A stretch of DNA of 54,530 nucleotides, taken from the NCBI GenBank assembly GCA_964578175.1, contig CAZOBH010000006.1, forward strand, positions 1 to 54,530, read 5' to 3'. The DNA is from an uncultured Clostridium sp. (lineage in GTDB: Bacteria; Bacillota_I; Bacilli_A; RF39; UBA660). Both the position numbers and the translations under genes were made by a program. This document shows positions 2,316 to 46,091 of this stretch, piece after piece (the first letter of the stretch is position 1; every line of letters starts with the position of its first letter). The notes under the pieces are model-generated. The model did no database searches, was not told the DNA's origin, and saw nothing but the letters and a program-made list of their open reading frames with translations.

Positions 2316-5300
2316 ATGAAAGAATCAATATACAAGAAAACAATGGTTTTAATACCTTCAGCTTTTAATAGTAAAGCAATGGGTGATATAGAAAATTTTA
2401 TTATTTTTTATAAAGATATCTTTGATTTATATATTATATGGGATAAAAAGAGTGAAATTATAAATGGAGTAAAATATATATCAAAATTTGATTCAAAAGC
2501 ACAATATTTAATAACAACTGCAGATTACATTATTGATGCCGGTACTATTAATGGAACAACTAAGATTAATAATAACCAAACAAGAATTAGCGTCTGGCAT
2601 GGTACTCCTTATAAAAAAATGTTTGTGGATTTAGATCCTACTAATATAAGCGAAGCTTTAAAATATGATTACGGTGTTGATTTAATGATTTCTCCTTCAA
2701 AATTTTATACAGAAGAGTTTCTAAGAAAATCAATGTTATATGACGGAAAAATTTTAGAAACTGCAATTTCACGAACAGATAGTTTGTATATTACAGATGA
2801 AGAGAAGAGATTGTTAAAAAAATCATTTCATATTGATGAAAATAAGAAAATTTTATTATATGCACCAACATATAGGAATCCTGGAAAAGTAAGACTACAT
2901 TTTGATGCTGGTAAATTAAAAAAATCACTAGAAAAAGATGGTAGTGAATGGGTAATTGTAACAAAACTACATTATCTAAATAAATTAATAAATAAGAGAG
3001 ACGTTATAGATTGTACATCATATCCAAATATAAATAATCTTTTAGCTATATCGGATGTTGTAGTAACAGATTATTCTAGTTTATTTATAGACTATTCTAT
3101 CTTAGATAAACCGGTTATTTTTTATCAATATGATAAAAAAGATTATGATAGTGATAGAGGATTTATGTTCTCGTTAGAAAAATACGTTGATAAAAAGTAT
3201 ATTATAGAAAATGAAAATGAATTATATGAATTAGCATCAAAAATAGAAAAAAAGCCTAATTTAAAAAAAGTAAGAAGTGAGTTTTATCCTTATCAAAAAG
3301 AGAATTCTACAAAAGATTTGGTAAAAAAACTTGACTTAAATGCTGATTCTAGAAAAACAAAAGAGATTATTTTTCTTATAAATGAAGTAAATCAATTAGG
3401 CGGGGTAAATAATTTTGTTATGAATTTTTCTAGGTATTTCAAGAAAAATTATAATTCCAAAATTATAATTGTCGGAATCAAGGAATTTAATAAAAATAAT
3501 AATGAAAATTATATTTTAGATGAAGATAATTTAGTTGATATTAAAGTTTCCTATGAAAATCATCCAAAATTAGTTAAATCCATTTTAGAAAATACAGATG
3601 GTTATATAATAACATGTCAGTTTTCAGCACAAAAAAAATTCCAATCTTTCCTAAAAAATAAAAATGTATTTTTAATGTTCCATGGTAATGGATATGATTT
3701 TGTTAATAGAAATTATTATACGTGGCATTTAGATGCTATAAATAAGAAAAAATTATATAATTACAAGAAATTTTTATTATTAACTGAAGATTATTGTAAT
3801 GCTATTAAAGAAGCGGTTATCCCACAACTAAAAGATAGAATTGGGTATATAGAAAATTCTTATGATTTTAATAATAGAAAAAATTATTATAAGAAATCGA
3901 ATGAATTTGCAGTATTGTCTAGACTTGATGATGACAAGAATATTTTTGATATTATAAAAATATTTTCAAATAAAAATTTAGATGAAAATTTTAAAGTTCA
4001 TGTTTATGGTGATGGAAAATTAAAAGAAAAATTTATTGAGGAAATCAAAAGTAATAAATTAGAAAAAAAGGTAATAGTTCATGGATATGTAGAAGATAAA
4101 AATCAAATGTATAAAGATAAACAAGGACTAATAATGACAACTTTGAGTGAAGGCTTTGGCCTTATAATACTTGAAGCAGCTAGTTATGGAATACCTACTT
4201 ATATTTATGAGTCTGCAGTTGCAGTTAGAGAATTTAAAAAATCTAATGTAATAAATGTAGTTGAAACATCTAATATTGAGGATTATGTAAACAAACTTAA
4301 TAATCCTAAAAAGTTTAGAAAAGAAGATTTTGATAATATCGTATCAATGTTTTCAAATGAGAAGATTTTTGATAGATGGATTGATTTATTTAGTGAAATT
4401 GAAAATGAAAATTGTGTAAACCCTCATTTAAAACAAGTAATTAAAAAAAATATAAAGTCCTTTATTTCAAATATAAAAACAAGCCTAAAAACAAACATTA
4501 AAAAAATATTAAATAAAGACACGAAACAAAAAGATAGAAAGAATAGAATAAAAACATATTTAAAATATATTTATGATAGATATAAATACTATATATTTAA
4601 ACTAAAACGTTTAACAATTAATCGTTATAAAGAACCATTAGTATCTATAATTGTTCCATTTTATAATTGTAATGATACAATAGAAGCTTTGTTAAAATCT
4701 ATAAAAAAATCTGGATATAAAAATTATGAAGTCATAGTTATTAATGATGGTTCATCTGATGATCCAAGAGATATTATAAAAAAATATAAAAAAGTAAGAT
4801 ATTATTATAAGAAAAACGAGGGAGTAGGGTTAGCGAGAAATTATGGATTAGAAAAAATGAAAGGAAAATATTTTTGCTTTTTTGATGCAGATGACACTAT
4901 GTATAAGGGGGCTTTAAATTATTTAGTAGATTATGCAATAAAGAATAATTTACCATTAGTTGCTGGTCAAACTCAAAGAATTATATTGAGTACAAAAAAA
5001 AGATCTTATTGGTTTAGAAAAATTTACAAAAAAAATTATGTTAATAAAATGAGTGATAGAACTTTGCTATTAGATGATTCATTATCAACGAATAAATTAT
5101 ATGAAACTTCGGCTTATAAAAAGAGTGGAATAAAATTTGATTCTGGTTTATATGAAGATAAATTATTTAGTTTTGAATTATATTCATATTATGATAAAAT
5201 CGGAATTATTAATAATATAGTTTATAATTGGTTGGTTTATGGTAATAATTCAAGTATTACAACAATTGCATCATTTGATAATATAAAAGAAAGAATAAAG

Positions 5301-5606
5301 CGAATAGAACAAATATATAATATGTGCGATAATAACTTTAAAAGAGGATATGTAAATTTATTTGTTAAACATGACTTATCAGTATTTATAAATGATTATA
5401 ATAGATATTCTAATAATGATAAGAAAAAAATATTTGACATGTATAGGGAATTTTTTATAAAAACTAAGAAATATATTTATTTCAATAATATTTTAAATGT
5501 TCAAAAAAGGGTTTTATTCCAACTTTTATTAAAAAATGATTTCTCTAGATTTGATTTACTTTCAACATATCTTTCTACTGCATTTCAAAAGAAAAAGTAT
5601 AATTAG
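2316..5606 (+). CDS. Three-domain protein: CDP-glycerol glycerophosphotransferase (TagF-like), GT4-like and GT2 glycosyltransferase
   Basis: WHGTP, YAPTYR and TDYSS (TagF family); SRLDDDKN and EGFGLIILEA (GT-B/GT4); VSIIVPFYN, NDGS and FFDADD (GT2). Confidence 0.85.
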   Translation: MKESIYKKTMVLIPSAFNSKAMGDIENFIIFYKDIFDLYIIWDKKSEIINGVKYISKFDSKAQYLITTADYIIDAGTINGTTKINNNQTRISVWHGTPYKKMFVDLDPTNISEALKYDYGVDLMISPSKFYTEEFLRKSMLYDGKILETAISRTDSLYITDEEKRLLKKSFHIDENKKILLYAPTYRNPGKVRLHFDAGKLKKSLEKDGSEWVIVTKLHYLNKLINKRDVIDCTSYPNINNLLAISDVVVTDYSSLFIDYSILDKPVIFYQYDKKDYDSDRGFMFSLEKYVDKKYIIENENELYELASKIEKKPNLKKVRSEFYPYQKENSTKDLVKKLDLNADSRKTKEIIFLINEVNQLGGVNNFVMNFSRYFKKNYNSKIIIVGIKEFNKNNNENYILDEDNLVDIKVSYENHPKLVKSILENTDGYIITCQFSAQKKFQSFLKNKNVFLMFHGNGYDFVNRNYYTWHLDAINKKKLYNYKKFLLLTEDYCNAIKEAVIPQLKDRIGYIENSYDFNNRKNYYKKSNEFAVLSRLDDDKNIFDIIKIFSNKNLDENFKVHVYGDGKLKEKFIEEIKSNKLEKKVIVHGYVEDKNQMYKDKQGLIMTTLSEGFGLIILEAASYGIPTYIYESAVAVREFKKSNVINVVETSNIEDYVNKLNNPKKFRKEDFDNIVSMFSNEKIFDRWIDLFSEIENENCVNPHLKQVIKKNIKSFISNIKTSLKTNIKKILNKDTKQKDRKNRIKTYLKYIYDRYKYYIFKLKRLTINRYKEPLVSIIVPFYNCNDTIEALLKSIKKSGYKNYEVIVINDGSSDDPRDIIKKYKKVRYYYKKNEGVGLARNYGLEKMKGKYFCFFDADDTMYKGALNYLVDYAIKNNLPLVAGQTQRIILSTKKRSYWFRKIYKKNYVNKMSDRTLLLDDSLSTNKLYETSAYKKSGIKFDSGLYEDKLFSFELYSYYDKIGIINNIVYNWLVYGNNSSITTIASFDNIKERIKRIEQIYNMCDNNFKRGYVNLFVKHDLSVFINDYNRYSNNDKKKIFDMYREFFIKTKKYIYFNNILNVQKRVLFQLLLKNDFSRFDLLSTYLSTAFQKKKYN

Positions 5607-24531: not shown

Positions 24532-24607
24532 GACTCCTTAGCTCAGTTGGTAGAGCAACTGACTCTTAATCAGTGGGTCTAGGGTTCGAATCCCTAAGGG
24601 GTCACCA
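24532..24607 (+). tRNA. tRNA-Lys(CTT)
   Basis: Cloverleaf GACTCCT...AGGGGTC-A-CCA; anticodon arm ACTGA-CT-CTT-AA-TCAGT; GTTCGAAT. Confidence 0.95.
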
Positions 24608-24640: not shown

Positions 24641-24731
24641 GGAGACATACTCAAGAGGCTGAAGAGGCGCCCCTGCTAAGGGTGTAGATCGGGTAACCGG
24701 TGCGAGAGTTCAAATCTCTCTGTCTCCGCCA
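24641..24731 (+). tRNA. tRNA-Ser(GCT)
   Basis: GGAGACA...TGTCTCC-G-CCA; anticodon CT-GCT-AA; long variable arm; GTTCAAAT. Confidence 0.95.
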
Positions 24732-24771: not shown

Positions 24772-24820
24772 AAGAATTTGCCTCAGATAAAAGATATCAA
24801 AAACCAACAGAACTAATGTA
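24772..24820 (+). repeat. Intergenic 49-bp fragment of the pilin-like genes
   Basis: 46/49 identical to 27548-27596 and 30187-30235, including 38 contiguous identical bases (24783-24820). Confidence 0.9.
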
Positions 24821-25971: not shown

Positions 25972-26493
25972 ATGAAGATTAAATCAAATCTTTCAGGTAA
26001 TTTTATGTCTATTTATAGTGAAGCAAAAGGGGTTGCTAGAAATAAAAAGTATATATTAAAGAATAAGAAAGTTTTTTCTATTAACTATTTTTTAGAACTA
26101 GCACTTAGATACATTATTTCTCTATATATAGAATTTTATTATCTAGATTATACGAGTGGAACAATTCAAATAGTATTTTTATTCTTGATACTATATACTT
26201 TGGTATTTATTATATTGGATATATTTAGATTAACTTTTATGTTTGAAAATATATGTAAAAAAGAATTTGTAACAAGTATAACAGTTACTGATAAAGGTAT
26301 AATAGATGAATCATTTTATGGAATAAAAATGTTATTTAAATGGAATAAAATTAAAGCAGTAGTTGTTAAAAATAAAAGTGTTGTTATACTTACTGATACT
26401 CCTTGTTATTTTTATTTCAGTAGTAGAGATGAAAAAAATATTATTAAGAAGTTAAAAGAATATAATAAAAATATTTTAGTAATTAGAAAATAA
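25972..26493 (+). CDS. Membrane protein with a YcxB-like C-terminal domain
   Basis: Two TM helices, then ITVTDKGII...KWNKIKAV pattern. Confidence 0.55.
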   Translation: MKIKSNLSGNFMSIYSEAKGVARNKKYILKNKKVFSINYFLELALRYIISLYIEFYYLDYTSGTIQIVFLFLILYTLVFIILDIFRLTFMFENICKKEFVTSITVTDKGIIDESFYGIKMLFKWNKIKAVVVKNKSVVILTDTPCYFYFSSRDEKNIIKKLKEYNKNILVIRK

Positions 26494-26550: not shown

Positions 26551-27285
26551 ATGAAGAAATTTATTAAATTATTATTGATGATAATTGTTATTAGTATACC
26601 TATAGTTAACGCTAAGTCTTTTAAAAGTTGTGATGATAAAGTAGAATTTAATACTCCAGACGGATGGTATACTTTTACTAGAGAGAATTATAAAGGAAAT
26701 GATTCTTTAATTCATAGTGGAAGAAGTGAAAGTGAAATAACTAAGTTGTTTGAAACAAATAATGTTTATTTGTATTCATTTACTAGTAATAGTAAAAAAG
26801 AGTTTTTAATAAAAAGAATAGAATATCAAAATAAAGATTTTAATCAAATGACAGAAGATGAATTAACTAGAATAGAAGATAAATTTGTAGATGGACTTGA
26901 TATAAATGAACATGAAAAATATGAAAAAGATAATTATATATTTATTAGATTAGAATTTAATAATAGTCAAAATAATAAAAATTTTTTTGTAGATGAATAC
27001 TTAATAGCTGTTGATAATTATTTATATTCTTTTATACTTCAAAGTACAGAAGAATTATCTGCAAGTGATAAAGTAGATTTTAAATCTAGAATTGATAGTT
27101 TAAATATAGATGGTATAAAAGATATAGCTATAGAAGAAGAACAAACTGTTTCTAATGAAGAAAATGAAGTAGTAATTGAGAATGAAGATAATTCATTAAA
27201 AATTATTATAATATTAATAGGAGTTGTCATAGTAATACTATCAATAATATTCCTTGCAATTTTACTTAAAGAAAGAAAAAAATAA
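26551..27285 (+). CDS. Hypothetical exported protein with a C-terminal membrane anchor
   Basis: Signal peptide MKKFIKLLLMIIVISIPIVNA; C-terminal hydrophobic helix and basic tail. Confidence 0.75.
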   Translation: MKKFIKLLLMIIVISIPIVNAKSFKSCDDKVEFNTPDGWYTFTRENYKGNDSLIHSGRSESEITKLFETNNVYLYSFTSNSKKEFLIKRIEYQNKDFNQMTEDELTRIEDKFVDGLDINEHEKYEKDNYIFIRLEFNNSQNNKNFFVDEYLIAVDNYLYSFILQSTEELSASDKVDFKSRIDSLNIDGIKDIAIEEEQTVSNEENEVVIENEDNSLKIIIILIGVVIVILSIIFLAILLKERKK

Positions 27286-27357
27286 TAATAATTATTTTAC
27301 AAGTAGATGATGAATCTACTTTTTTTTGTTTAAAAATTTATGTTATAATGACAATTG

Positions 27358-29027
27358 TAGAATAGTAGGATTATATGATAGGGTGATTATATGAATAAAA
27401 AAGGATTTACAATGATAGAGTTGCTAGCGGTAATAGTAATACTAGGACTTTTACTAGGAGTTGGAATACCAGCAGTAAATAAAGTGCTAGCTAATTTTAG
27501 AATTGATTATTATAAGAAGTTAGAAGGAACCCTAGCAACAGCAGGTCAAGAATTTATATCAGATAAAAGATATCAAAAACCAACAGAACTAATGTATTCA
27601 AGAGTAATAACAAAGGAAGAATTAGTAGGTGGAAAATATATAGATGAGATATTAGATTATAAAGAGAATGAATGTGCAGGAAGTTATGTAGTGGTAGCAA
27701 AAATAGGAGATAAACACTACGAGTATCAAGCATGCTTAAAATGTGAAACAGACGAATATGAAACAGATACAAGTAATAAAGAATATGATCTATGTAATAT
27801 AGCATGGCAAGATAATGAAAACATTGATTATGGAGCAGTAAACGATAAAGAAAAATTATGGGTATATTATGGAACACCAGCAAATGAGATAAAGAACGAG
27901 CTAGGTCTATCTTACGGAATAACAAAGAAAGATAGTGAAGGAAAAGTAATAGCACAAGCAGAAGGAATGGAAAATAAAATTGTATATCCAAATAACATAA
28001 ATGAATTAGTAAGTGCAAATCTAGATAAAGAAGTAACATTAAGATATGAATTACCAACAGGAGAAAGTGTAAATAGAAAAGCAGAGATGTATAGATTTAG
28101 TGTACCAACAGTAAGTCTAAAATATGGAGCAAATAATGTAGCAACAGGAAAACATACAGGAGATACATACACTCAAGGAGAATGGACGAGTAGTTTAAAT
28201 GTAACAATCGGATATAATGAGAAAGATAAAGAAAAATATAGAGACTTTATAGAACAAAGCACGAAATTCACGGTAGAGTGGTATAACCAAACAACAAAGA
28301 AGTGGGAGATAGGAGCAACATGTAATACGAAAGGACTAACTAGTTGTACATGGAATATAAATAGAGACTTTAATGCAGTAACAAAATTTAGAATAAAAGA
28401 TTATAAAGGACATCCATCAATGGAAACTGGAAACTATAAGTTACAAGTAGATGTACAAAAACCAAGTGTAACATTAACAAGACAAACATATAATACATAT
28501 AATTGGACAGCAACAGAGAAAGGTGAATCAGGATTAAGAGGATATAGGTATTCAACAAGTAATACAGTACCAACAAGTTACACAACAAGTGGAACAATAA
28601 ATTCAGGAAGTAAAACAATAAGTAGTGAAGCAACAAACTATGTATGGGTAGTAGATAGAGCAGGAAATGCGAATAGTGCATCAATTGCATCATATACAGT
28701 AAAAAGAAGTCAAGGAGCAGGAACGAGTTTAACAACAAAATATGAAACATCAAGTGGAACAACATTTACAAGTAATTTAGTAGTATTAAATGGAACAAAG
28801 ATATATGTATCAGGAACATCAAGTGCAGGATACAGTGGAATAGTAGTAAAGAAAAATGGAACAGCAATAACAAATAATGCACAAACAACAATAAGTGCGA
28901 ACTCGACAATCAGTAGTGAAGCAACAATATGTGCAGCTGGAAGTTATAGTGGAGCAGGAGCAGCATCATGTACAAAATGTCCAGTTGGAACTTATTCGTC
29001 AGGTACAGGATCAACTTCATGTACAAA
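27358..29027 (+). repeat. 1670-bp direct repeat, copy A
   Basis: Matches 29997-31666 at offset 2639; protein and alternate-frame translations are identical. Confidence 0.92.
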
Positions 29028-29886
29028 CTGTGCAACAGGTTATGAAAGTGGTGAAGGCGCAACTACTTGTACAAAGAAAACATTTACTATTACATATAAT
29101 GGAAATGGAAGTACTGGAGGATCAACTGCTAGTACAAGTTGTAAATATAATGAAACATGTACTTTAAGAAATAATGGATTTAAAAGAACAGGGTATTTCT
29201 TTACAGGATGGTATACTAGTGCATCTGGAGGAACTAAATATGGTTCAACTACTAAACTTACAAGTAATATAACAGTTTATGCACAATGGACAAAAATAAC
29301 TATGAGTATCTCTAATCCAACTAATGGAAATTGGACAAATCGAGATATAGTATTATCATTAAGTACAAGTTTACCAGCAGAAAAAGTAAAATCTTGGTAT
29401 TATAGTTATGCTAATATTACTCCAAGTTTAAGTAATGTTGGAAGTGACGATACTAGAAATTGGGTTAAACATGATAATTCATCTGGTAAAAAATCATTTA
29501 ATACAACACCATATAGTGCAGAGAGAAATCAACTATCATACATAATGGTGTGTAGTACTGATAATGAATGTATTAAAGAATCAACACGTATTAGAATTGA
29601 CAAAACTGCACCTTATTATTCATCAAGCGAATCAAGAGACTGTGATCATATATATTATGGATATTATCATTGTTATATGCCTATAATAAGAGATAATTTA
29701 TCTGGTGTAAACAGTCGTTGTATTTCAACTTCTGGTGGAGAAAATCATTGTGATAATTATGGTGGAATTATGGCTGTGTCTGATGAGTTAAATACAACAT
29801 CATATTCTATTTGGTGGGATTACAGCAGTGCATGTGACATAGCTGGAAATTGTAGAAATCTTGGAAGACATTATCATAGTTGGTAA
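27391..29886 (+). CDS. Type IV prepilin-like surface protein A: three Cys-rich repeats, InlB B-repeat-like domain, unique C-terminus
   Basis: G|FTMIELLAVIVILGLL methylation motif; TITYNGNG...TGYFFTGWYT...VYAQW (about 29080-29295). Confidence 0.85.
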   Translation: MNKKGFTMIELLAVIVILGLLLGVGIPAVNKVLANFRIDYYKKLEGTLATAGQEFISDKRYQKPTELMYSRVITKEELVGGKYIDEILDYKENECAGSYVVVAKIGDKHYEYQACLKCETDEYETDTSNKEYDLCNIAWQDNENIDYGAVNDKEKLWVYYGTPANEIKNELGLSYGITKKDSEGKVIAQAEGMENKIVYPNNINELVSANLDKEVTLRYELPTGESVNRKAEMYRFSVPTVSLKYGANNVATGKHTGDTYTQGEWTSSLNVTIGYNEKDKEKYRDFIEQSTKFTVEWYNQTTKKWEIGATCNTKGLTSCTWNINRDFNAVTKFRIKDYKGHPSMETGNYKLQVDVQKPSVTLTRQTYNTYNWTATEKGESGLRGYRYSTSNTVPTSYTTSGTINSGSKTISSEATNYVWVVDRAGNANSASIASYTVKRSQGAGTSLTTKYETSSGTTFTSNLVVLNGTKIYVSGTSSAGYSGIVVKKNGTAITNNAQTTISANSTISSEATICAAGSYSGAGAASCTKCPVGTYSSGTGSTSCTNCATGYESGEGATTCTKKTFTITYNGNGSTGGSTASTSCKYNETCTLRNNGFKRTGYFFTGWYTSASGGTKYGSTTKLTSNITVYAQWTKITMSISNPTNGNWTNRDIVLSLSTSLPAEKVKSWYYSYANITPSLSNVGSDDTRNWVKHDNSSGKKSFNTTPYSAERNQLSYIMVCSTDNECIKESTRIRIDKTAPYYSSSESRDCDHIYYGYYHCYMPIIRDNLSGVNSRCISTSGGENHCDNYGGIMAVSDELNTTSYSIWWDYSSACDIAGNCRNLGRHYHSW

Positions 29887-29996
29887 TAAATAATATGAAA
29901 AAAAGAATGAAATATATATAAATATTTCATCCTTTTTTATTTATTTATAATTTTAATATAAATTTTCACATTATTTTTTAATATCCTATGGTATAC

Positions 29997-31666
29997 TAGA
30001 ATAGTAGGATTATATGATAGGGTGATTATATGAATAAAAAAGGATTTACAATGATAGAGTTGCTAGCGGTAATAGTAATACTAGGACTTTTACTAGGAGT
30101 TGGAATACCAGCAGTAAATAAAGTGCTAGCTAATTTTAGAATTGATTATTATAAGAAGTTAGAAGGAACCCTAGCAACAGCAGGTCAAGAATTTATATCA
30201 GATAAAAGATATCAAAAACCAACAGAACTAATGTATTCAAGAGTAATAACAAAGGAAGAATTAGTAGGTGGAAAATATATAGATGAGATATTAGATTATA
30301 AAGAGAATGAATGTGCAGGAAGTTATGTAGTGGTAGCAAAAATAGGAGATAAACACTACGAGTATCAAGCATGCTTAAAATGTGAAACAGACGAATATGA
30401 AACAGATACAAGTAATAAAGAATATGATCTATGTAATATAGCATGGCAAGATAATGAAAACATTGATTATGGAGCAGTAAACGATAAAGAAAAATTATGG
30501 GTATATTATGGAACACCAGCAAATGAGATAAAGAACGAGCTAGGTCTATCTTACGGAATAACAAAGAAAGATAGTGAAGGAAAAGTAATAGCACAAGCAG
30601 AAGGAATGGAAAATAAAATTGTATATCCAAATAACATAAATGAATTAGTAAGTGCAAATCTAGATAAAGAAGTAACATTAAGATATGAATTACCAACAGG
30701 AGAAAGTGTAAATAGAAAAGCAGAGATGTATAGATTTAGTGTACCAACAGTAAGTCTAAAATATGGAGCAAATAATGTAGCAACAGGAAAACATACAGGA
30801 GATACATACACTCAAGGAGAATGGACGAGTAGTTTAAATGTAACAATCGGATATAATGAGAAAGATAAAGAAAAATATAGAGACTTTATAGAACAAAGCA
30901 CGAAATTCACGGTAGAGTGGTATAACCAAACAACAAAGAAGTGGGAGATAGGAGCAACATGTAATACGAAAGGACTAACTAGTTGTACATGGAATATAAA
31001 TAGAGACTTTAATGCAGTAACAAAATTTAGAATAAAAGATTATAAAGGACATCCATCAATGGAAACTGGAAACTATAAGTTACAAGTAGATGTACAAAAA
31101 CCAAGTGTAACATTAACAAGACAAACATATAATACATATAATTGGACAGCAACAGAGAAAGGTGAATCAGGATTAAGAGGATATAGGTATTCAACAAGTA
31201 ATACAGTACCAACAAGTTACACAACAAGTGGAACAATAAATTCAGGAAGTAAAACAATAAGTAGTGAAGCAACAAACTATGTATGGGTAGTAGATAGAGC
31301 AGGAAATGCGAATAGTGCATCAATTGCATCATATACAGTAAAAAGAAGTCAAGGAGCAGGAACGAGTTTAACAACAAAATATGAAACATCAAGTGGAACA
31401 ACATTTACAAGTAATTTAGTAGTATTAAATGGAACAAAGATATATGTATCAGGAACATCAAGTGCAGGATACAGTGGAATAGTAGTAAAGAAAAATGGAA
31501 CAGCAATAACAAATAATGCACAAACAACAATAAGTGCGAACTCGACAATCAGTAGTGAAGCAACAATATGTGCAGCTGGAAGTTATAGTGGAGCAGGAGC
31601 AGCATCATGTACAAAATGTCCAGTTGGAACTTATTCGTCAGGTACAGGATCAACTTCATGTACAAA
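29997..31666 (+). repeat. 1670-bp direct repeat, copy B
   Basis: See copy A; the copies diverge immediately after TCAACTTCATGTACAAA. Confidence 0.92.
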
Positions 31667-33314
31667 ATGTGCCAAAGGAACTTATGCAGCAAGTACTGGA
31701 TCATCAAGTTGTGCAAAAGCAAGCTGTGGGCATTACGTAGATACAGAAGGAGCGAGTTCACAAAAAACATGTGCCGCAGGAACATATAGTTCAGAAGGAG
31801 CAGCAACATGTACAAGTGCAACAGCAGGACATTATGTAGCAAGTGCTGGAGCATGTAGTCAAACAGCATGTGCGAAAGGAACATATCAATCAGGAACAGG
31901 AAAGACAAGCTGTACACAAGCAACATGTGGACATTATGTAAGTTCAACAGGAGCAACATCACAAGCAACATGTGCAGCTGGAACGTATAGTGCAGCAGGA
32001 GCAGCAACATGTACAAGTGCAACAGCTGGACATTATGTTGCAAGTGCTGGAGCATGTAGTCAAACAGCATGTGCGAAAGGAACATATCAATCAGGAACAG
32101 GAAAGACAAGCTGTACACAAGCAACATGTGGACATTATGTAAGTTCAACAGGAGCAACATCACAAGCAACATGTGCAGCTGGAACGTATAGTGCAGCAGG
32201 GGCAGCATCATGTACAAGTGCAACAGCTGGTCACTATGTAGCAAGTGCTGGAGCATGTAGCCAAACAGCATGTGCTAAAGGAACATATCAATCGGGAACA
32301 GGGAAAACAAGTTGTTCAAGTTGTGCAGCCGGAACTTATGCATCTAGTACTGGTTCAAGTAGTTGTACAAATGCAAGTTGTGGACATTATGTAGCAAGTG
32401 CTGGAGCAAGTTCACAAACAGCATGTGCAGCCGGGACATATCAAGATGGAACAGGGAAAACAAGTTGTAAAAGTGCAACAGCTGGTCACTACGTAGCAAG
32501 TGCTGGAGCATGCAGTCAAGCTGCTTGTGCTAAAGGAACATATCAATCAGGAACAGGAAAAACAAGTTGTTCAAATTGTGCAGCCGGAACTTATGCATCT
32601 AGTACTGGATCAAGTAGTTGTACAAATGCAAGTTGTGGACATTATGTAGCAAGTGCTGGAGCAAGTTCACAAACAGCATGTGCAGCCGGAACATATCAAT
32701 CAGGAACAGGAAAAACAAGTTGTACAAATGCTAGTAAAGGATATTATGTAGCAAGTGCCGGGTCATGTAGTCAAACAAAATGTCCAGCGAATAAATATCA
32801 AAATGAAACAGGAAAGTCTAGTTGTAAAAACTGTCCTGCTGGTACTGAAAGTAGTGCTGGAGCAAGTTCATGTACATCTACATGTACTCTTACATTTACA
32901 AATGCTACTTATGTTGAAAGTGGAAATAACGGTGGTAGATGTTGGAACACTTGTAAAGGTACTGAGTGTCAAAGTTCTCATCTTCACTGGGAACATAATT
33001 GTAGTACTCCTTCAACTGGTGGAAGTAGAAAGTCTATCTCACATAGTGGATATAGTTGGAACTGGGGAGGACAAGGATCTAGAATGTGTTACTATAACCC
33101 AGATTCTAGTCCATACTTCAGCGATTTATGGGAAAGATGTGATACATCTGAAGCATATTATAATAATTCTGCTAAAACTGCTGGTGGAACATTCTGTTTT
33201 AACTCAGCACAAAAATGGGATTATTATAGGTCATCAGAATATGGAATTGCTACCGTATGTTATGGTACTCAATGTGGCCAAAGAATAATTTGTACAGGAA
33301 GTAATTGTAATTAA
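30030..33314 (+). CDS. Type IV prepilin-like surface protein B with a long Cys-rich repeat stalk and unique C-terminus
   Basis: Same N-terminal ~546 aa as protein A; 26 units of 16-17 aa; Cys/aromatic-rich tip of about 145 aa. Confidence 0.85.
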   Translation: MNKKGFTMIELLAVIVILGLLLGVGIPAVNKVLANFRIDYYKKLEGTLATAGQEFISDKRYQKPTELMYSRVITKEELVGGKYIDEILDYKENECAGSYVVVAKIGDKHYEYQACLKCETDEYETDTSNKEYDLCNIAWQDNENIDYGAVNDKEKLWVYYGTPANEIKNELGLSYGITKKDSEGKVIAQAEGMENKIVYPNNINELVSANLDKEVTLRYELPTGESVNRKAEMYRFSVPTVSLKYGANNVATGKHTGDTYTQGEWTSSLNVTIGYNEKDKEKYRDFIEQSTKFTVEWYNQTTKKWEIGATCNTKGLTSCTWNINRDFNAVTKFRIKDYKGHPSMETGNYKLQVDVQKPSVTLTRQTYNTYNWTATEKGESGLRGYRYSTSNTVPTSYTTSGTINSGSKTISSEATNYVWVVDRAGNANSASIASYTVKRSQGAGTSLTTKYETSSGTTFTSNLVVLNGTKIYVSGTSSAGYSGIVVKKNGTAITNNAQTTISANSTISSEATICAAGSYSGAGAASCTKCPVGTYSSGTGSTSCTKCAKGTYAASTGSSSCAKASCGHYVDTEGASSQKTCAAGTYSSEGAATCTSATAGHYVASAGACSQTACAKGTYQSGTGKTSCTQATCGHYVSSTGATSQATCAAGTYSAAGAATCTSATAGHYVASAGACSQTACAKGTYQSGTGKTSCTQATCGHYVSSTGATSQATCAAGTYSAAGAASCTSATAGHYVASAGACSQTACAKGTYQSGTGKTSCSSCAAGTYASSTGSSSCTNASCGHYVASAGASSQTACAAGTYQDGTGKTSCKSATAGHYVASAGACSQAACAKGTYQSGTGKTSCSNCAAGTYASSTGSSSCTNASCGHYVASAGASSQTACAAGTYQSGTGKTSCTNASKGYYVASAGSCSQTKCPANKYQNETGKSSCKNCPAGTESSAGASSCTSTCTLTFTNATYVESGNNGGRCWNTCKGTECQSSHLHWEHNCSTPSTGGSRKSISHSGYSWNWGGQGSRMCYYNPDSSPYFSDLWERCDTSEAYYNNSAKTAGGTFCFNSAQKWDYYRSSEYGIATVCYGTQCGQRIICTGSNCN
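31569..32879 (+). repeat. Intragenic tandem Cys-rich repeats (CxxGTY / xxxGHY units; 201-bp higher-order period)
   Basis: Near-identical blocks start at 31801, 32002 and 32203. Confidence 0.9.
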
Positions 33315-33330: not shown

Positions 33331-34119
33331 ATGAAGAAAAAAAATAAATTTAATCTAAAATTATTAATTGGAATAGTATTATTAATATTTATTATTATAT
33401 GTGTCTTATTCTTTGCTAATTATAAAAATGATGATAAAAAATTAACGCAAGAGGAAGAAGTATTAGAAAATATAGATAAAGTATTCTTAAATAAAGATAC
33501 AAATTCAGAAGCTATTTTTAAACTTATGGAAACAAAAGTTGCTACAACATATATAATGATGGGAAAAGGATCATTCTTAAGAAGTACACCAAAAGTACCT
33601 GAGAATTTAAACTCTTATAAAAAGGTACAAAATAAATATGTTGATAAAATAGAGAATATTATTTTAGAAAATTCAAAATATGAAATAACAGATACAAGAG
33701 ATGGAAATATATATTTTGATATAACACCATGGTATTATGATATGTATGCTAGTGATGTTATGCATTTATCAAGTAGACTTATGAAAATGAATGGTGTTAG
33801 CAATGATCCAGAAAAAAATACAAATTATTCAGTAGACGAATATAAATCAAGAGTAAAAGCAATGCAAATAATAGATAGGAAATTGGATAATTATTACAAT
33901 ACTGAAAATGAAGTTCTACATTTTAAAATGTTTTTTGTAGATGGAAAACCATATGAAAATCAATATTTGAGCTTATACTTTAATTTAGCAGGAGTAACAT
34001 CAAAAACAGCAATAATGAATCAAGCAGCATATGAAAAACAAACTAAAAGAATAGATGGTTATATAGATGAAGCAATTAAAAACGGAATACTTGATAAAAA
34101 TAATCCATTTGAATTATAA
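33331..34119 (+). CDS. Hypothetical membrane-anchored protein
   Basis: GAGGTG RBS; single N-terminal TM helix; directly downstream of pilin-like gene B. Confidence 0.75.
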   Translation: MKKKNKFNLKLLIGIVLLIFIIICVLFFANYKNDDKKLTQEEEVLENIDKVFLNKDTNSEAIFKLMETKVATTYIMMGKGSFLRSTPKVPENLNSYKKVQNKYVDKIENIILENSKYEITDTRDGNIYFDITPWYYDMYASDVMHLSSRLMKMNGVSNDPEKNTNYSVDEYKSRVKAMQIIDRKLDNYYNTENEVLHFKMFFVDGKPYENQYLSLYFNLAGVTSKTAIMNQAAYEKQTKRIDGYIDEAIKNGILDKNNPFEL

Positions 34120-45320: not shown

Positions 45321-46091
45321 TTAGTTTTTAGTTGCTGGTATAGTTTTAGTGCATTTGTTATTAGATAAGGTATATCCAGAATCACATGTATAGATTTTTT
45401 TATGTAATGGTAGACATTTATAACTATCTGGTCCACCCAAACTAATCATTTTTATTATTCCATATCCACTAGGACAAGATTCGTCTGTTGTTTCATATCC
45501 TTCACTTAAATTAACGCAATATGTATCGCTTGGTATTCCTGAATTTGAGTAATCATAAGTATTAGAAGGACATACATGTTTTGCATCAATTGTAATGGTA
45601 CATGTAGTTCCATTTAATTTATATCCATTTGGACATGAATAAGTTACTTTTGGTTTAGGAGTTTCAGTTTGATTATTATTATTTGATCCTGTATTTGTTG
45701 TTGTTCCTGAACTAGAACTTGTATTTGTATTAGTTTTTGTATTTTTATTTGTATTTGTCTTTTTATTAGTTGTATTTTTACTTGATGTAGACTTTTTTGT
45801 TTTTGTACTTGTACTTGTAGTATTTTTTGTACTAGTTTTAGGATTAGTAACTTTATTATCAGTTTTATTAGTATTGTTAGTATTAGTTTGTTCTTTGGTT
45901 TGTTCTTTAGTTTGCTCTTTATTTTCTTCTATAGTTGATTCGATTACAGGTGTTTCTTCTTTTGTTTCAATTTTACTAGTTTCACTTGTCTTATTATTTT
46001 TATATGTATTAGTTTTTAAGAGAAAGAAACAAACACATATTAAAGTGATTATAAAAATGATTAAAAATACTTTTTTTCTATCCATAAACAT
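45321..46091 (-). CDS. Membrane-anchored protein with a T/N/K-rich stalk and a Cys-rich CPxGY C-terminal domain
   Basis: N-terminal TM helix; low-complexity linker; CPNGY, CPSGY and CDSGY; eight Cys in the C-domain. Confidence 0.8.
   Translation of the reverse strand: MFMDRKKVFLIIFIITLICVCFFLLKTNTYKNNKTSETSKIETKEETPVIESTIEENKEQTKEQTKEQTNTNNTNKTDNKVTNPKTSTKNTTSTSTKTKKSTSSKNTTNKKTNTNKNTKTNTNTSSSSGTTTNTGSNNNNQTETPKPKVTYSCPNGYKLNGTTCTITIDAKHVCPSNTYDYSNSGIPSDTYCVNLSEGYETTDESCPSGYGIIKMISLGGPDSYKCLPLHKKIYTCDSGYTLSNNKCTKTIPATKN

Follow-up and report, generated by a model that had tools for sequence, protein, structure and literature searches.

The window analysed here is a stretch of 54,530 nucleotides (nt) of contig CAZOBH010000006.1 (assembly GCA_964578175.1) from an uncultured Clostridium sp. 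It contains two tandem genes, designated gene A and gene B, which code for giant proteins with a type IV pilin-like N-terminus. The corresponding genes in related genomes are referred to as g1 and g2. Both genes share an identical 5' part, followed by different cysteine (Cys)-rich stalks and different C-terminal tips. The genes and their segments are given below by window position, strand and length in amino acids (aa); UTR stands for untranslated region.

27391..29886, + strand: gene A (g1), 831 aa, with a pilin-like module, beta-sandwich domains, three Cys units, a Flg_new domain and tip A
30030..33314, + strand: gene B (g2), 1094 aa, with the first 545 aa as in gene A, then a Cys stalk of 26 units and the orphan tip B
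27358..29027, + strand: repeat copy 1, the 33-nt 5'UTR and codons 1-545 of gene A, with a 100% match to copy 2
29997..31666, + strand: repeat copy 2, the 5'UTR and codons 1-545 of gene B
27391..28095 (gene A) and 30030-30734 (gene B), + strand: segment S1, aa 1-235, with signal peptide, helix, small beta domain and one further domain
28096..28485 (gene A) and 30735-31124 (gene B), + strand: segment S2, aa 236-365, a beta-sandwich domain of the g2 type
28486..28929 (gene A) and 31125-31568 (gene B), + strand: segment S3, aa 366-513, without a homologue beyond the window
28930..29079, + strand: Cys units of gene A, three units of about 17 aa (aa 514-563), with the identical tract stopping at 29027, between units 2 and 3
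29083..29286, + strand: Flg_new/Listeria-Bacteroides repeat of gene A (InlB B-repeat type), aa 565-632, Pfam E = 3.5e-13
29311..29883, + strand: tip A, 191 aa, with a divergent first half
31569..32882, + strand: Cys-rich stalk of gene B, 26 units of about 17 aa (aa 514-951)
32883..33311, + strand: tip B, 143 aa, Cys-rich, an orphan sequence

Structure of the gene pair

In a base-by-base comparison, 27358-29027 and 29997-31666 agreed at each of their 1670 nt; the two copies are offset by 2639 nt. Beyond both edges, the identity (per 60 nt) drops abruptly to a background of 28-40%, with 25-40% expected for unrelated AT-rich DNA. The left edge is located 33 nt 5' of each ATG (27391 and 30030), and the right edge lies 2 nt inside codon 546, directly past the residues ...GSTSCT. 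A first-pass annotation, made from the sequence without database searches, had described this identity including the 33 nt in front of the ATG, the divergence inside a Cys repeat after ...SCT, and alternate-frame open reading frames (ORFs) of 167, 86 and 125 aa in both copies, and all of these were recovered. The three ORFs, which are located on the minus strand and are rich in Leu, are mechanical by-products of the identity and not genes. For the nearest relative, 30 differences in 1074 nt were counted in the same region, compared to none in 1670 nt between the copies (Fisher p = 5e-13), and chance was therefore dismissed as the cause of the identity. Since the codon differences to relatives are mostly synonymous (19, compared to 8 non-synonymous ones), the shared 5' region is regarded as real and constrained coding sequence. 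The product of gene A is present among the database proteins (P0001), gene B was never returned in the searches made, and exact-product look-ups for both proteins found no record.

A further piece of the constant region was identified upstream. A fragment of 49 nt at 24772-24820 (+ strand) matches positions 27548-27596 (codons 53-68) with 94% identity, 38 nt of it exactly. It is located in non-coding DNA just 3' of genes for tRNA-Lys (24532-24607) and tRNA-Ser (24641-24731) and of a terminator hairpin, and resembles the remnant of an earlier copy or the trace of a rearrangement at the tRNA site.

Both proteins start with MNKKG/FTMIELLAVIVILGLLLGVGIPAV, where the slash separates positions -1 and +1. 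This corresponds to a class III (prepilin) signal peptide, MNKKG/FTMIELL, with G at -1, F at +1 and E at +5. The type IV pilin-like N-terminus assigned in the first pass was borne out by Pfam N_methyl (25.7 and 25.3 bits, cut-off 21.2) and by TIGR02532 (26.7 and 26.2 bits, cut-off 16.3). An AlphaFold 2 (AF2) model was built from an alignment of 11 sequences and reached an overall predicted local distance difference test score (pLDDT) of 49.6. It contains a helix at aa 8-58 followed by strands, with a pLDDT of 70-85 for aa 10-120, and a confident beta-sandwich at aa 230-355, while the remainder is unreliable; segment S2 was modelled as all beta with a pLDDT of 75-88. The PDB sequence matches to the N-terminal module span the helix alone. 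Pilins that stand alone, with 130-160 aa and from uncultured gut Bacilli, were aligned to aa 1-118 with 33-37% identity, and the first 120 residues or so are therefore considered to be a pilin-sized module. In a set of species-representative genomes, only distant relatives with at most 37% identity over the pilin module were present, in uncultured Bacilli, Erysipelotrichaceae, Candidatus Onthousia and Clostridium sp. CAG:451. Most of the length of these pilin-like proteins is without a Pfam match.

The back parts of the two proteins were found as described before, with three Cys repeats, an InlB B-repeat-like domain and an own tip in gene A, and 26 repeats and a different tip in gene B. The Flg_new/List_Bact_rpt domain of gene A was matched over its full length (1-65 of 65) with 49.9 bits at a cut-off of 27, and TIGR02543 scored 24.2 bits at a cut-off of 20.95; the match to the InlB structure 2y5p was weak (E = 0.13). 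The domain is 67% identical to a repeat of the database protein P0013. IPR013378 is, we presume, the Listeria-Bacteroides/InlB B-repeat entry for this type of domain. The first domain of tip A, with the motif NPTNGNWTN...WYYSY...IRIDKTxP, recurs in many proteins, some of them with a pilin N-terminus (for example P0027).

The stalk of gene B belongs to a type known mainly from eukaryotes. Ephrin_rec_like (PF07699) was matched in gene B with 97 bits in six stretches and in gene A with 23.5 bits, at a cut-off of 23.1, and the CxxGxY...C spacing is present. The stalk of gene B also matched the mastigoneme protein Mst1 of Chlamydomonas (PDB 8tx1) with E = 3.4e-17 over aa 525-805. Tandem units of about 17 aa with the pattern CxxGxY...C are found in gene B as in Mst1 and other Ephrin_rec_like (GCC2/GCC3) proteins (PDB 8tx1/8wa2), and in Mst1 the Cys repeats belong to an extended extracellular filament protein; Mst1 is eukaryotic while B is bacterial. 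Half of the units in gene B have one Cys instead of two, and the disulfide pattern would be irregular, if any disulfides form in a gut bacterium that is presumably anaerobic. Within the stalk, stretches of 161 nt recur exactly with a spacing of 201 nt, and stretches of 80 nt with one of 255 nt. As both spacings are multiples of three, unequal recombination would be expected to change the length of the stalk in frame. The same variant unit, CxxGxESxxGAxxCT, ends both stalks, as had been noticed in the first pass. The DNA of the two units is only 67% identical, and because of this they are regarded as old homologues which lie outside the recent exchange. The GC content rises to 39-45% in the region of the stalk (31500-32999), compared to 26% across the window. 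Horizontal transfer is not needed to explain the rise to 43-45% in the stalk, which is accounted for by the content of Cys, Gly, Ala, Thr and Ser codons. For tip B, a word-indexed search gave no match, and an exhaustive HMMER search over 1.84e9 representatives returned only two spurious, repeat-driven hits; its single-sequence AF2 model (pLDDT 33) was unusable.

For each gene, candidate signals for transcription and translation were identified. A consensus scan for promoters and terminators was uninformative in DNA of 26% GC, with 37 promoter-like sites compared to 35 expected and no terminators, and the -10-like boxes were instead read directly and the hairpins folded. The ribosome-binding site is abbreviated as RBS.

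27301..27329, + strand: terminator of the upstream 244-aa gene, a hairpin followed by T8, in front of gene A
27341..27349, + strand: putative extended -10-like box of gene A, TGTTATAAT, outside the repeat and kept in the relative L002
27380-27386, + strand: RBS of gene A, AGGGTGA, inside the repeat
29899..29945, + strand: terminator-like AT-rich hairpin and T-run past gene A (-13.2 kcal/mol, z = -3.5), kept in the relatives L001 and L002
29989..29997, + strand: putative extended -10-like box of gene B, TGGTATACT, different from that of gene A and kept in L001 and L002
30019-30025, + strand: RBS of gene B, inside the repeat

By these signals, gene A and gene B each look like a transcription unit of their own.

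Concerted evolution and mosaicism among close relatives

Close relatives of the gene pair are few, with only three in the databases. The metagenome contig L002 (GCA_001684375.1) has the same two upstream genes with about 98-99% identity, then g1 (coding for P0003) and the same spacer, and it breaks off within g2, of which only the first part is present. The contig of L001 (ERZ12302817) starts inside g1 and continues with the same spacer and a complete g2 (coding for P0002). The tandem pair, the spacer and the two differing upstream regions are thus present in three independent assemblies. Both related contigs are interrupted within the shared 5' region, which is typical of short-read assemblies at genuine repeats. 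By the conserved order of g1, spacer and g2, the gene pair is old and real. Gross misassembly was ruled out as the origin of the layout by its presence in L001 and L002, and recent duplication was ruled out as the source of the identity, since the tandem pair and its spacer predate the split from these relatives. Of the two origins proposed in the first-pass annotation, recent duplication or conversion, only conversion was therefore retained, for which concerted evolution of the relatives' paralogues speaks.

The stretch that g1 and g2 have in common reaches only to the equivalent of position 28096 (codon 235) in L001 and L002, with an amino acid identity of about 98% before codon 235 and of 37% after it. 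Segment S1 is the sole part common to g1 and g2 in all strains, and S1 of the window is 97.6-98.3% identical to the genes of L001 and L002. For S2, g1 of the relatives has a version with only 37% identity, whereas S2 of both genes A and B is 97% identical to P0002. A search for homologues of S3 outside the window found none.

Within S1, the paralogues of one genome were found to resemble each other more closely than the orthologues of two genomes. In codons 25-235, g1 and g2 of L001 differ at 3 of 633 nt. Between g1 of L001 and g1 of L002, 14 of 633 nt differ in the same codons, compared to 5 of 1713 nt over the remainder of the gene (Fisher p = 2.7e-5). In the shared tract, the differences within a genome (0 of 1670 in the window, 3 of 633 in L001) are thus fewer than those between genomes (14-30), and an excess of orthologue divergence is confined by sharp borders, which are specific to the lineage (nt 28096 in L001 and L002, nt 29027 in the window). 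The variable sites are distributed in patches. L001 g1 and g2 have common variants which are absent from the window, the 13 sites that distinguish g1 from g2 in L002 all fall into the first 318 nt, after which the two are identical, and the single sequence of the window mixes states of the g1 type and of the g2 type. This pattern is read as the signature of repeated, short and bidirectional gene conversion between the two loci.

On a larger scale, whole modules are combined differently in the relatives. Gene B of the window is 97% identical to P0002 up to codon 358 and unrelated after it, and the back part of P0002 consists of four Cys-containing beta-domain repeats and another end. In P0005 and P0003, a tip of the A type is present on a body of the g1 type. 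At the amino acid level, tip A is 69% identical to the tip of P0003; the flanking genes, in contrast, show only about 1% difference. Compared to g1 of L001, the nt identity is 83-100% over the last 290 nt or so of tip A and about 97% over the adjoining spacer (29886-29997). Gene A has the S2 of the g2 type, S3 and two Cys units in common with gene B, an own third Cys unit, Flg_new domain and tip after position 29027, and a first half of the tip that is strongly diverged from the g1 tip of L001 and L002. By this comparison, gene A is a mosaic of three parts. Breakpoints were located at codon 235 (g1 compared to g2), at about codon 358-365 (gene B of the window compared to P0002) and near nt 29600 inside tip A; all of these coincide with domain borders or fall within domains. 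Several of them are at or near domain borders, namely codon 235/236, a ...VDVxKP motif near codon 365 and the motif IRIDKxxP. In a pilin-like gene of the more distant relative L075 (positions 1-2684), the modules are arranged differently: a Flg_new-like domain is followed by at least eight Cys units, a domain of the tip-A type and a different end. Here, a scaffold gap of 100 N lies inside the Cys repeats, and a gene for an IS21-type helper (IstB_IS21) is located just downstream.

These comparisons also bear on the system that had been proposed from the window sequence, a constant/variable adhesin in which the Cys repeat serves as the crossover point for exchanging tips. The layout of a constant front and a variable back was retained, and other 3' modules were indeed found on the same front in relatives. 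However, the Cys repeat is not where crossovers generally lie; the breakpoints of the relatives are located elsewhere, and solely the latest tract of the window ends in Cys units. A programmed switching function is not supported, as both genes are complete and neither a recombinase nor inverted repeats nor silent cassettes were identified, and recombination between direct repeats deletes or amplifies the intervening DNA instead of swapping a tip. The data show evolutionary mosaicism and no switching system.

Proposed origin, rival explanations and known systems

We consider it likely that A and B are tandem, separately expressed, modular pilin-like surface proteins which present two different tips on one carrier, and that their 5' parts are homogenised by homologous recombination. 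With the same likelihood, and as part of the same explanation, tips and stalks would evolve through module exchange and repeat expansion. The carrier would be made up of the signal peptide of class III, the pilin-sized module and the beta-sandwich domains, and would present a variable "effector" end. In A, this effector would comprise a short Cys stalk, the domain of the InlB B-repeat type and the tip, and in B a long, rigid, Cys-rich stalk and the orphan tip. The tips would most likely bind ligands, which would give two specificities on one carrier. The proteins may be processed as prepilins and displayed on a pilus, and a function as adhesins is probable by analogy.

For the 5' parts, evolution in concert by general (RecA-type) homologous recombination or gene conversion between direct repeats is proposed. 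The g1 allele of this lineage would already have contained Cys units in front of the Flg_new domain. A recent conversion from the g2 copy, or in the reverse direction, may then have covered everything between the ancient left border, 33 nt in front of the ATG, and the end of codon 545, and been resolved within homologous Cys-unit DNA. By this, the ancestral middle of gene A, of the g1 type, would have been overwritten by g2 sequence, resulting in the identity of 1670 nt. In the longer term, whole modules would be exchanged at domain borders, between the paralogues and with imported alleles, and the in-frame repeats spaced 201 and 255 nt apart would let the stalk of B vary in length.

Several points weigh against this explanation. 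Neither a prepilin peptidase nor genes for pilus or Com assembly were found in the 54-kb window, and no pilus machinery was found beside the homologues; the distant homologues are orphan genes among housekeeping genes. Foldseek with the low-confidence full model returned only generic Ig/FN3 strings and no pilin fold, with matches including titin, cytokine receptors and the SiiE adhesin. The adhesin role is derived by analogy alone, and tip B is without a homologue. The perfect identity of the copies could have been sharpened by polishing. Direction and timing of the conversion, as well as the ancestral Cys stalk of gene A, would follow from few sequences, those of the three close relatives.

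A and B might not be pilus subunits at all. The class III signal peptide would then serve for export and membrane anchoring only, as in archaeal proteins of the bindosome type, and class III signal peptides on non-pilus proteins are reported from archaea (PMC3047682). With 831-1094 aa the proteins are very large, and as orphans their genes lie at a distance from any pilus machinery, both in the window and in the relatives. However, the homology to the stand-alone pilins spans the whole pilin-sized module and thus extends beyond the hydrophobic motif, and type IV pili are known to display large modular pilins (PMC8179133). A non-pilus role is judged to be rather unlikely. An assembly artefact, by which the copies are not truly identical or the first 1.67 kb of A were borrowed from B through repeat resolution, strain mixing or polishing, is regarded as very improbable. 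Short reads hardly span an exact repeat of 1.67 kb, the related short-read contigs break in this region, the scaffold gap of L075 lies within Cys repeats, and neither protein is on record elsewhere as an exact product. But the tandem layout is confirmed by the independent assemblies, as are the spacer and both upstream regions, and polishing, which may erase a few mismatches, cannot create S2 of the g2 type and S3 in gene A. Moreover, the junction at 29027/29028 leads in frame into a third Cys unit which is absent from gene B (at most 67% nt identity), so that Cys units must precede a Flg_new domain in some real gene.

It is also quite improbable that the locus is kept for programmed variation, in which the 5' block and the Cys-unit repeats would be selected as recombination substrates and cells would frequently swap or rejoin stalks and tips, similar to pilE/pilS or a shufflon without a recombinase, so that the specificity of the adhesins would vary among the cells of a population. 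If so, gut Bacilli would have a device for varying the adhesins on their pili that works without a recombinase. Clonal populations would continuously yield variants in stalk length, deletions or amplifications of A and B, and chimeras with transformed DNA, by which the choice of the displayed tip, including the orphan Cys-rich one, and its distance from the cell would be tuned. The constant front and variable back, the different 3' modules on the same front across strains, the long exact in-frame repeats of the stalk, the relic of the constant region 2.6 kb upstream and the recurrent conversion in all three lineages would agree with such a device. Against it stands the finding that A and B are complete genes, each with a -10-like box, an RBS and a terminator, that only two copies and no promoterless cassettes are present in 54 kb, and that a crossover between direct repeats would not result in an exchange. 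Furthermore, the unique 3' parts have no common exact match longer than 12 nt, and the breakpoints of the relatives lie away from the Cys repeat.

The explanation by homogenised modular pilin-like proteins has counterparts in several known systems. The babA, babB and babC genes of Helicobacter pylori and the FLO genes of yeast are complete, expressed paralogues with near-identical end segments and divergent binding regions. In these adhesin genes, RecA-type conversion homogenises the shared part and makes chimeric alleles, and internal repeats alter the length of the protein; chimeras of the yeast FLO adhesins arise by ectopic recombination. A and B are likewise complete paralogues with a homogenised shared part, but they are adjacent direct repeats instead of dispersed loci, share the 5' part only and belong to a pilin-like class. 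For Neisseria pilE/pilS, a constant N-terminus of the pilin is combined with a variable C-terminus by RecA-dependent, non-reciprocal transfer between copies with conserved sequence in common, and the pilS copies are many, promoterless and truncated at their 5' ends. In contrast, A and B are both full genes, and the copied part is the conserved and not the variable one. Membership in the pilE/pilS type was rejected, since in the 54-kb window both copies have an ATG, RBS, -10-like box and terminators. Apart from the 49-nt relic, no related DNA and thus no silent cassettes were identified in the window.

Modular pilins are established for Streptococcus sanguinis, with PilB containing a vWA module and PilC a lectin module (Raynaud et al. 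2021, PMC8179133), and more than 1,200 such proteins with 264 architectures were surveyed there. As in the definition given in that work, A and B combine a pilin module with domains that are not specific for pili (Flg_new in A and Ephrin_rec_like in both), and the proposed role, a binding module displayed on a filament, is the same. The part of the PMC8179133 dataset consulted lists architectures of a pilin with IPR013378, and an ephrin-receptor-like Cys stalk is not among the architectures in that part. A and B differ from the surveyed proteins in being much larger and composed of many domains, in the orphan tip B and in the lack of a pilus operon nearby; compared to PilB and PilC of S. sanguinis, they are known here from sequence alone.

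The PilV minor pilin adhesins of the shufflons on the IncI plasmids R64 and TP114 (PMC9045228) also have a constant N-terminal part, of 345 aa in TP114, and alternative C-terminal ends, which in PilV set the binding specificity. However, a shufflon consists of one pilV gene with inverted sfx sites and the tyrosine recombinase Rci, which inverts the cassettes, whereas the locus of A and B has two complete genes in direct orientation (both + strand). Among the window ORFs of at least 100 aa that were scanned with Pfam, no recombinase family was matched, in agreement with the first-pass annotation; the 256-aa ORF at 45321-46091 was scanned solely at a stricter cut-off (E <= 1e-4), also without a match. 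Inverted repeats near the locus were only AT-rich and at chance level, and membership in the shufflons was rejected on both grounds. A target of a diversity-generating retroelement was rejected as well, as no reverse transcriptase domain was identified in the scanned ORFs and the repeat is 100% identical and not adenine-mutated.

Modular pilins, gene conversion between adhesin paralogues and pilin adhesins with a constant front and a variable back are already known, and no new mechanism is described here. New are the family of giant, mostly unannotated pilin-like proteins from uncultured gut Bacilli of low GC, the long ephrin-receptor-like Cys stalk on a prepilin-type N-terminus, the orphan tip, and a twin locus in which concerted evolution can be seen with unusual clarity. 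Modular pilins are believed to account for the many functions that simple filaments acquire, and almost all data on them come from a few cultured species. At the present locus, a Cys-rich stalk, a domain of the InlB B-repeat type, recurring tips and an orphan tip are re-assorted on a conserved carrier, and it provides a natural example of commensals diversifying their surface adhesins via ordinary recombination. In practice, short-read assemblies will break or collapse such loci.

Surroundings of the locus and distant homologues

The window has a GC content of 26% and represents ordinary chromosome, with genes for teichoic-acid glycerophosphotransferases, an AMP-binding enzyme beside an MBOAT acyltransferase, Lon, BacA, a P-type ATPase, SHMT and EF-P. 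The pairing of the AMP-binding enzyme with the MBOAT acyltransferase is one which we take to be of the dlt type. A teichoic-acid-type cluster is headed by an ORF of 1096 aa (2316-5606), in which three transferase domains (Glyphos_transf, GT1 and GT2) are fused, and contains two more Glyphos_transf genes and a cytidylyltransferase.

Directly behind gene B, one further reading frame was identified.

33331..34119, + strand: ORF of 262 aa, starting 16 nt past the stop of gene B, with an own RBS (GAGGTGG) and a hydrophobic stretch near the N-terminus

Scans with Pfam and NCBIfam gave no match for this ORF. It is probably cotranscribed with gene B; in L001 it is absent 3' of g2, and the synteny downstream is altogether different there.

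Upstream of gene A, two proteins of 173 aa (25972-26493) and 244 aa (26551-27285) with unassigned role are predicted to be membrane-bound or secreted, the latter with a weak, sub-threshold EssA-like C-terminus. Both genes are kept upstream of g1 in L002, and the 173-aa gene is also present near a pilin-like gene of the more distant relative L003.

Giant pilin-like genes in tandem were also observed in a metagenome-assembled genome of Bacilli from sheep duodenum (L008, 5286-16451), which contains three of them (1398, 1065 and 1038 aa). The second and third of them share 75% identity from end to end and represent ordinary diverging paralogues without a constant/variable split. In another organism (L053, 3406-3646), a pilin-like gene is located right after pheS and pheT, and the contig ends 70 nt into the gene. 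Here, the upstream spacer is about 79% similar, and the 5'UTR together with the first codons is 96% similar; therefore, the same 5' module is found at a different locus.

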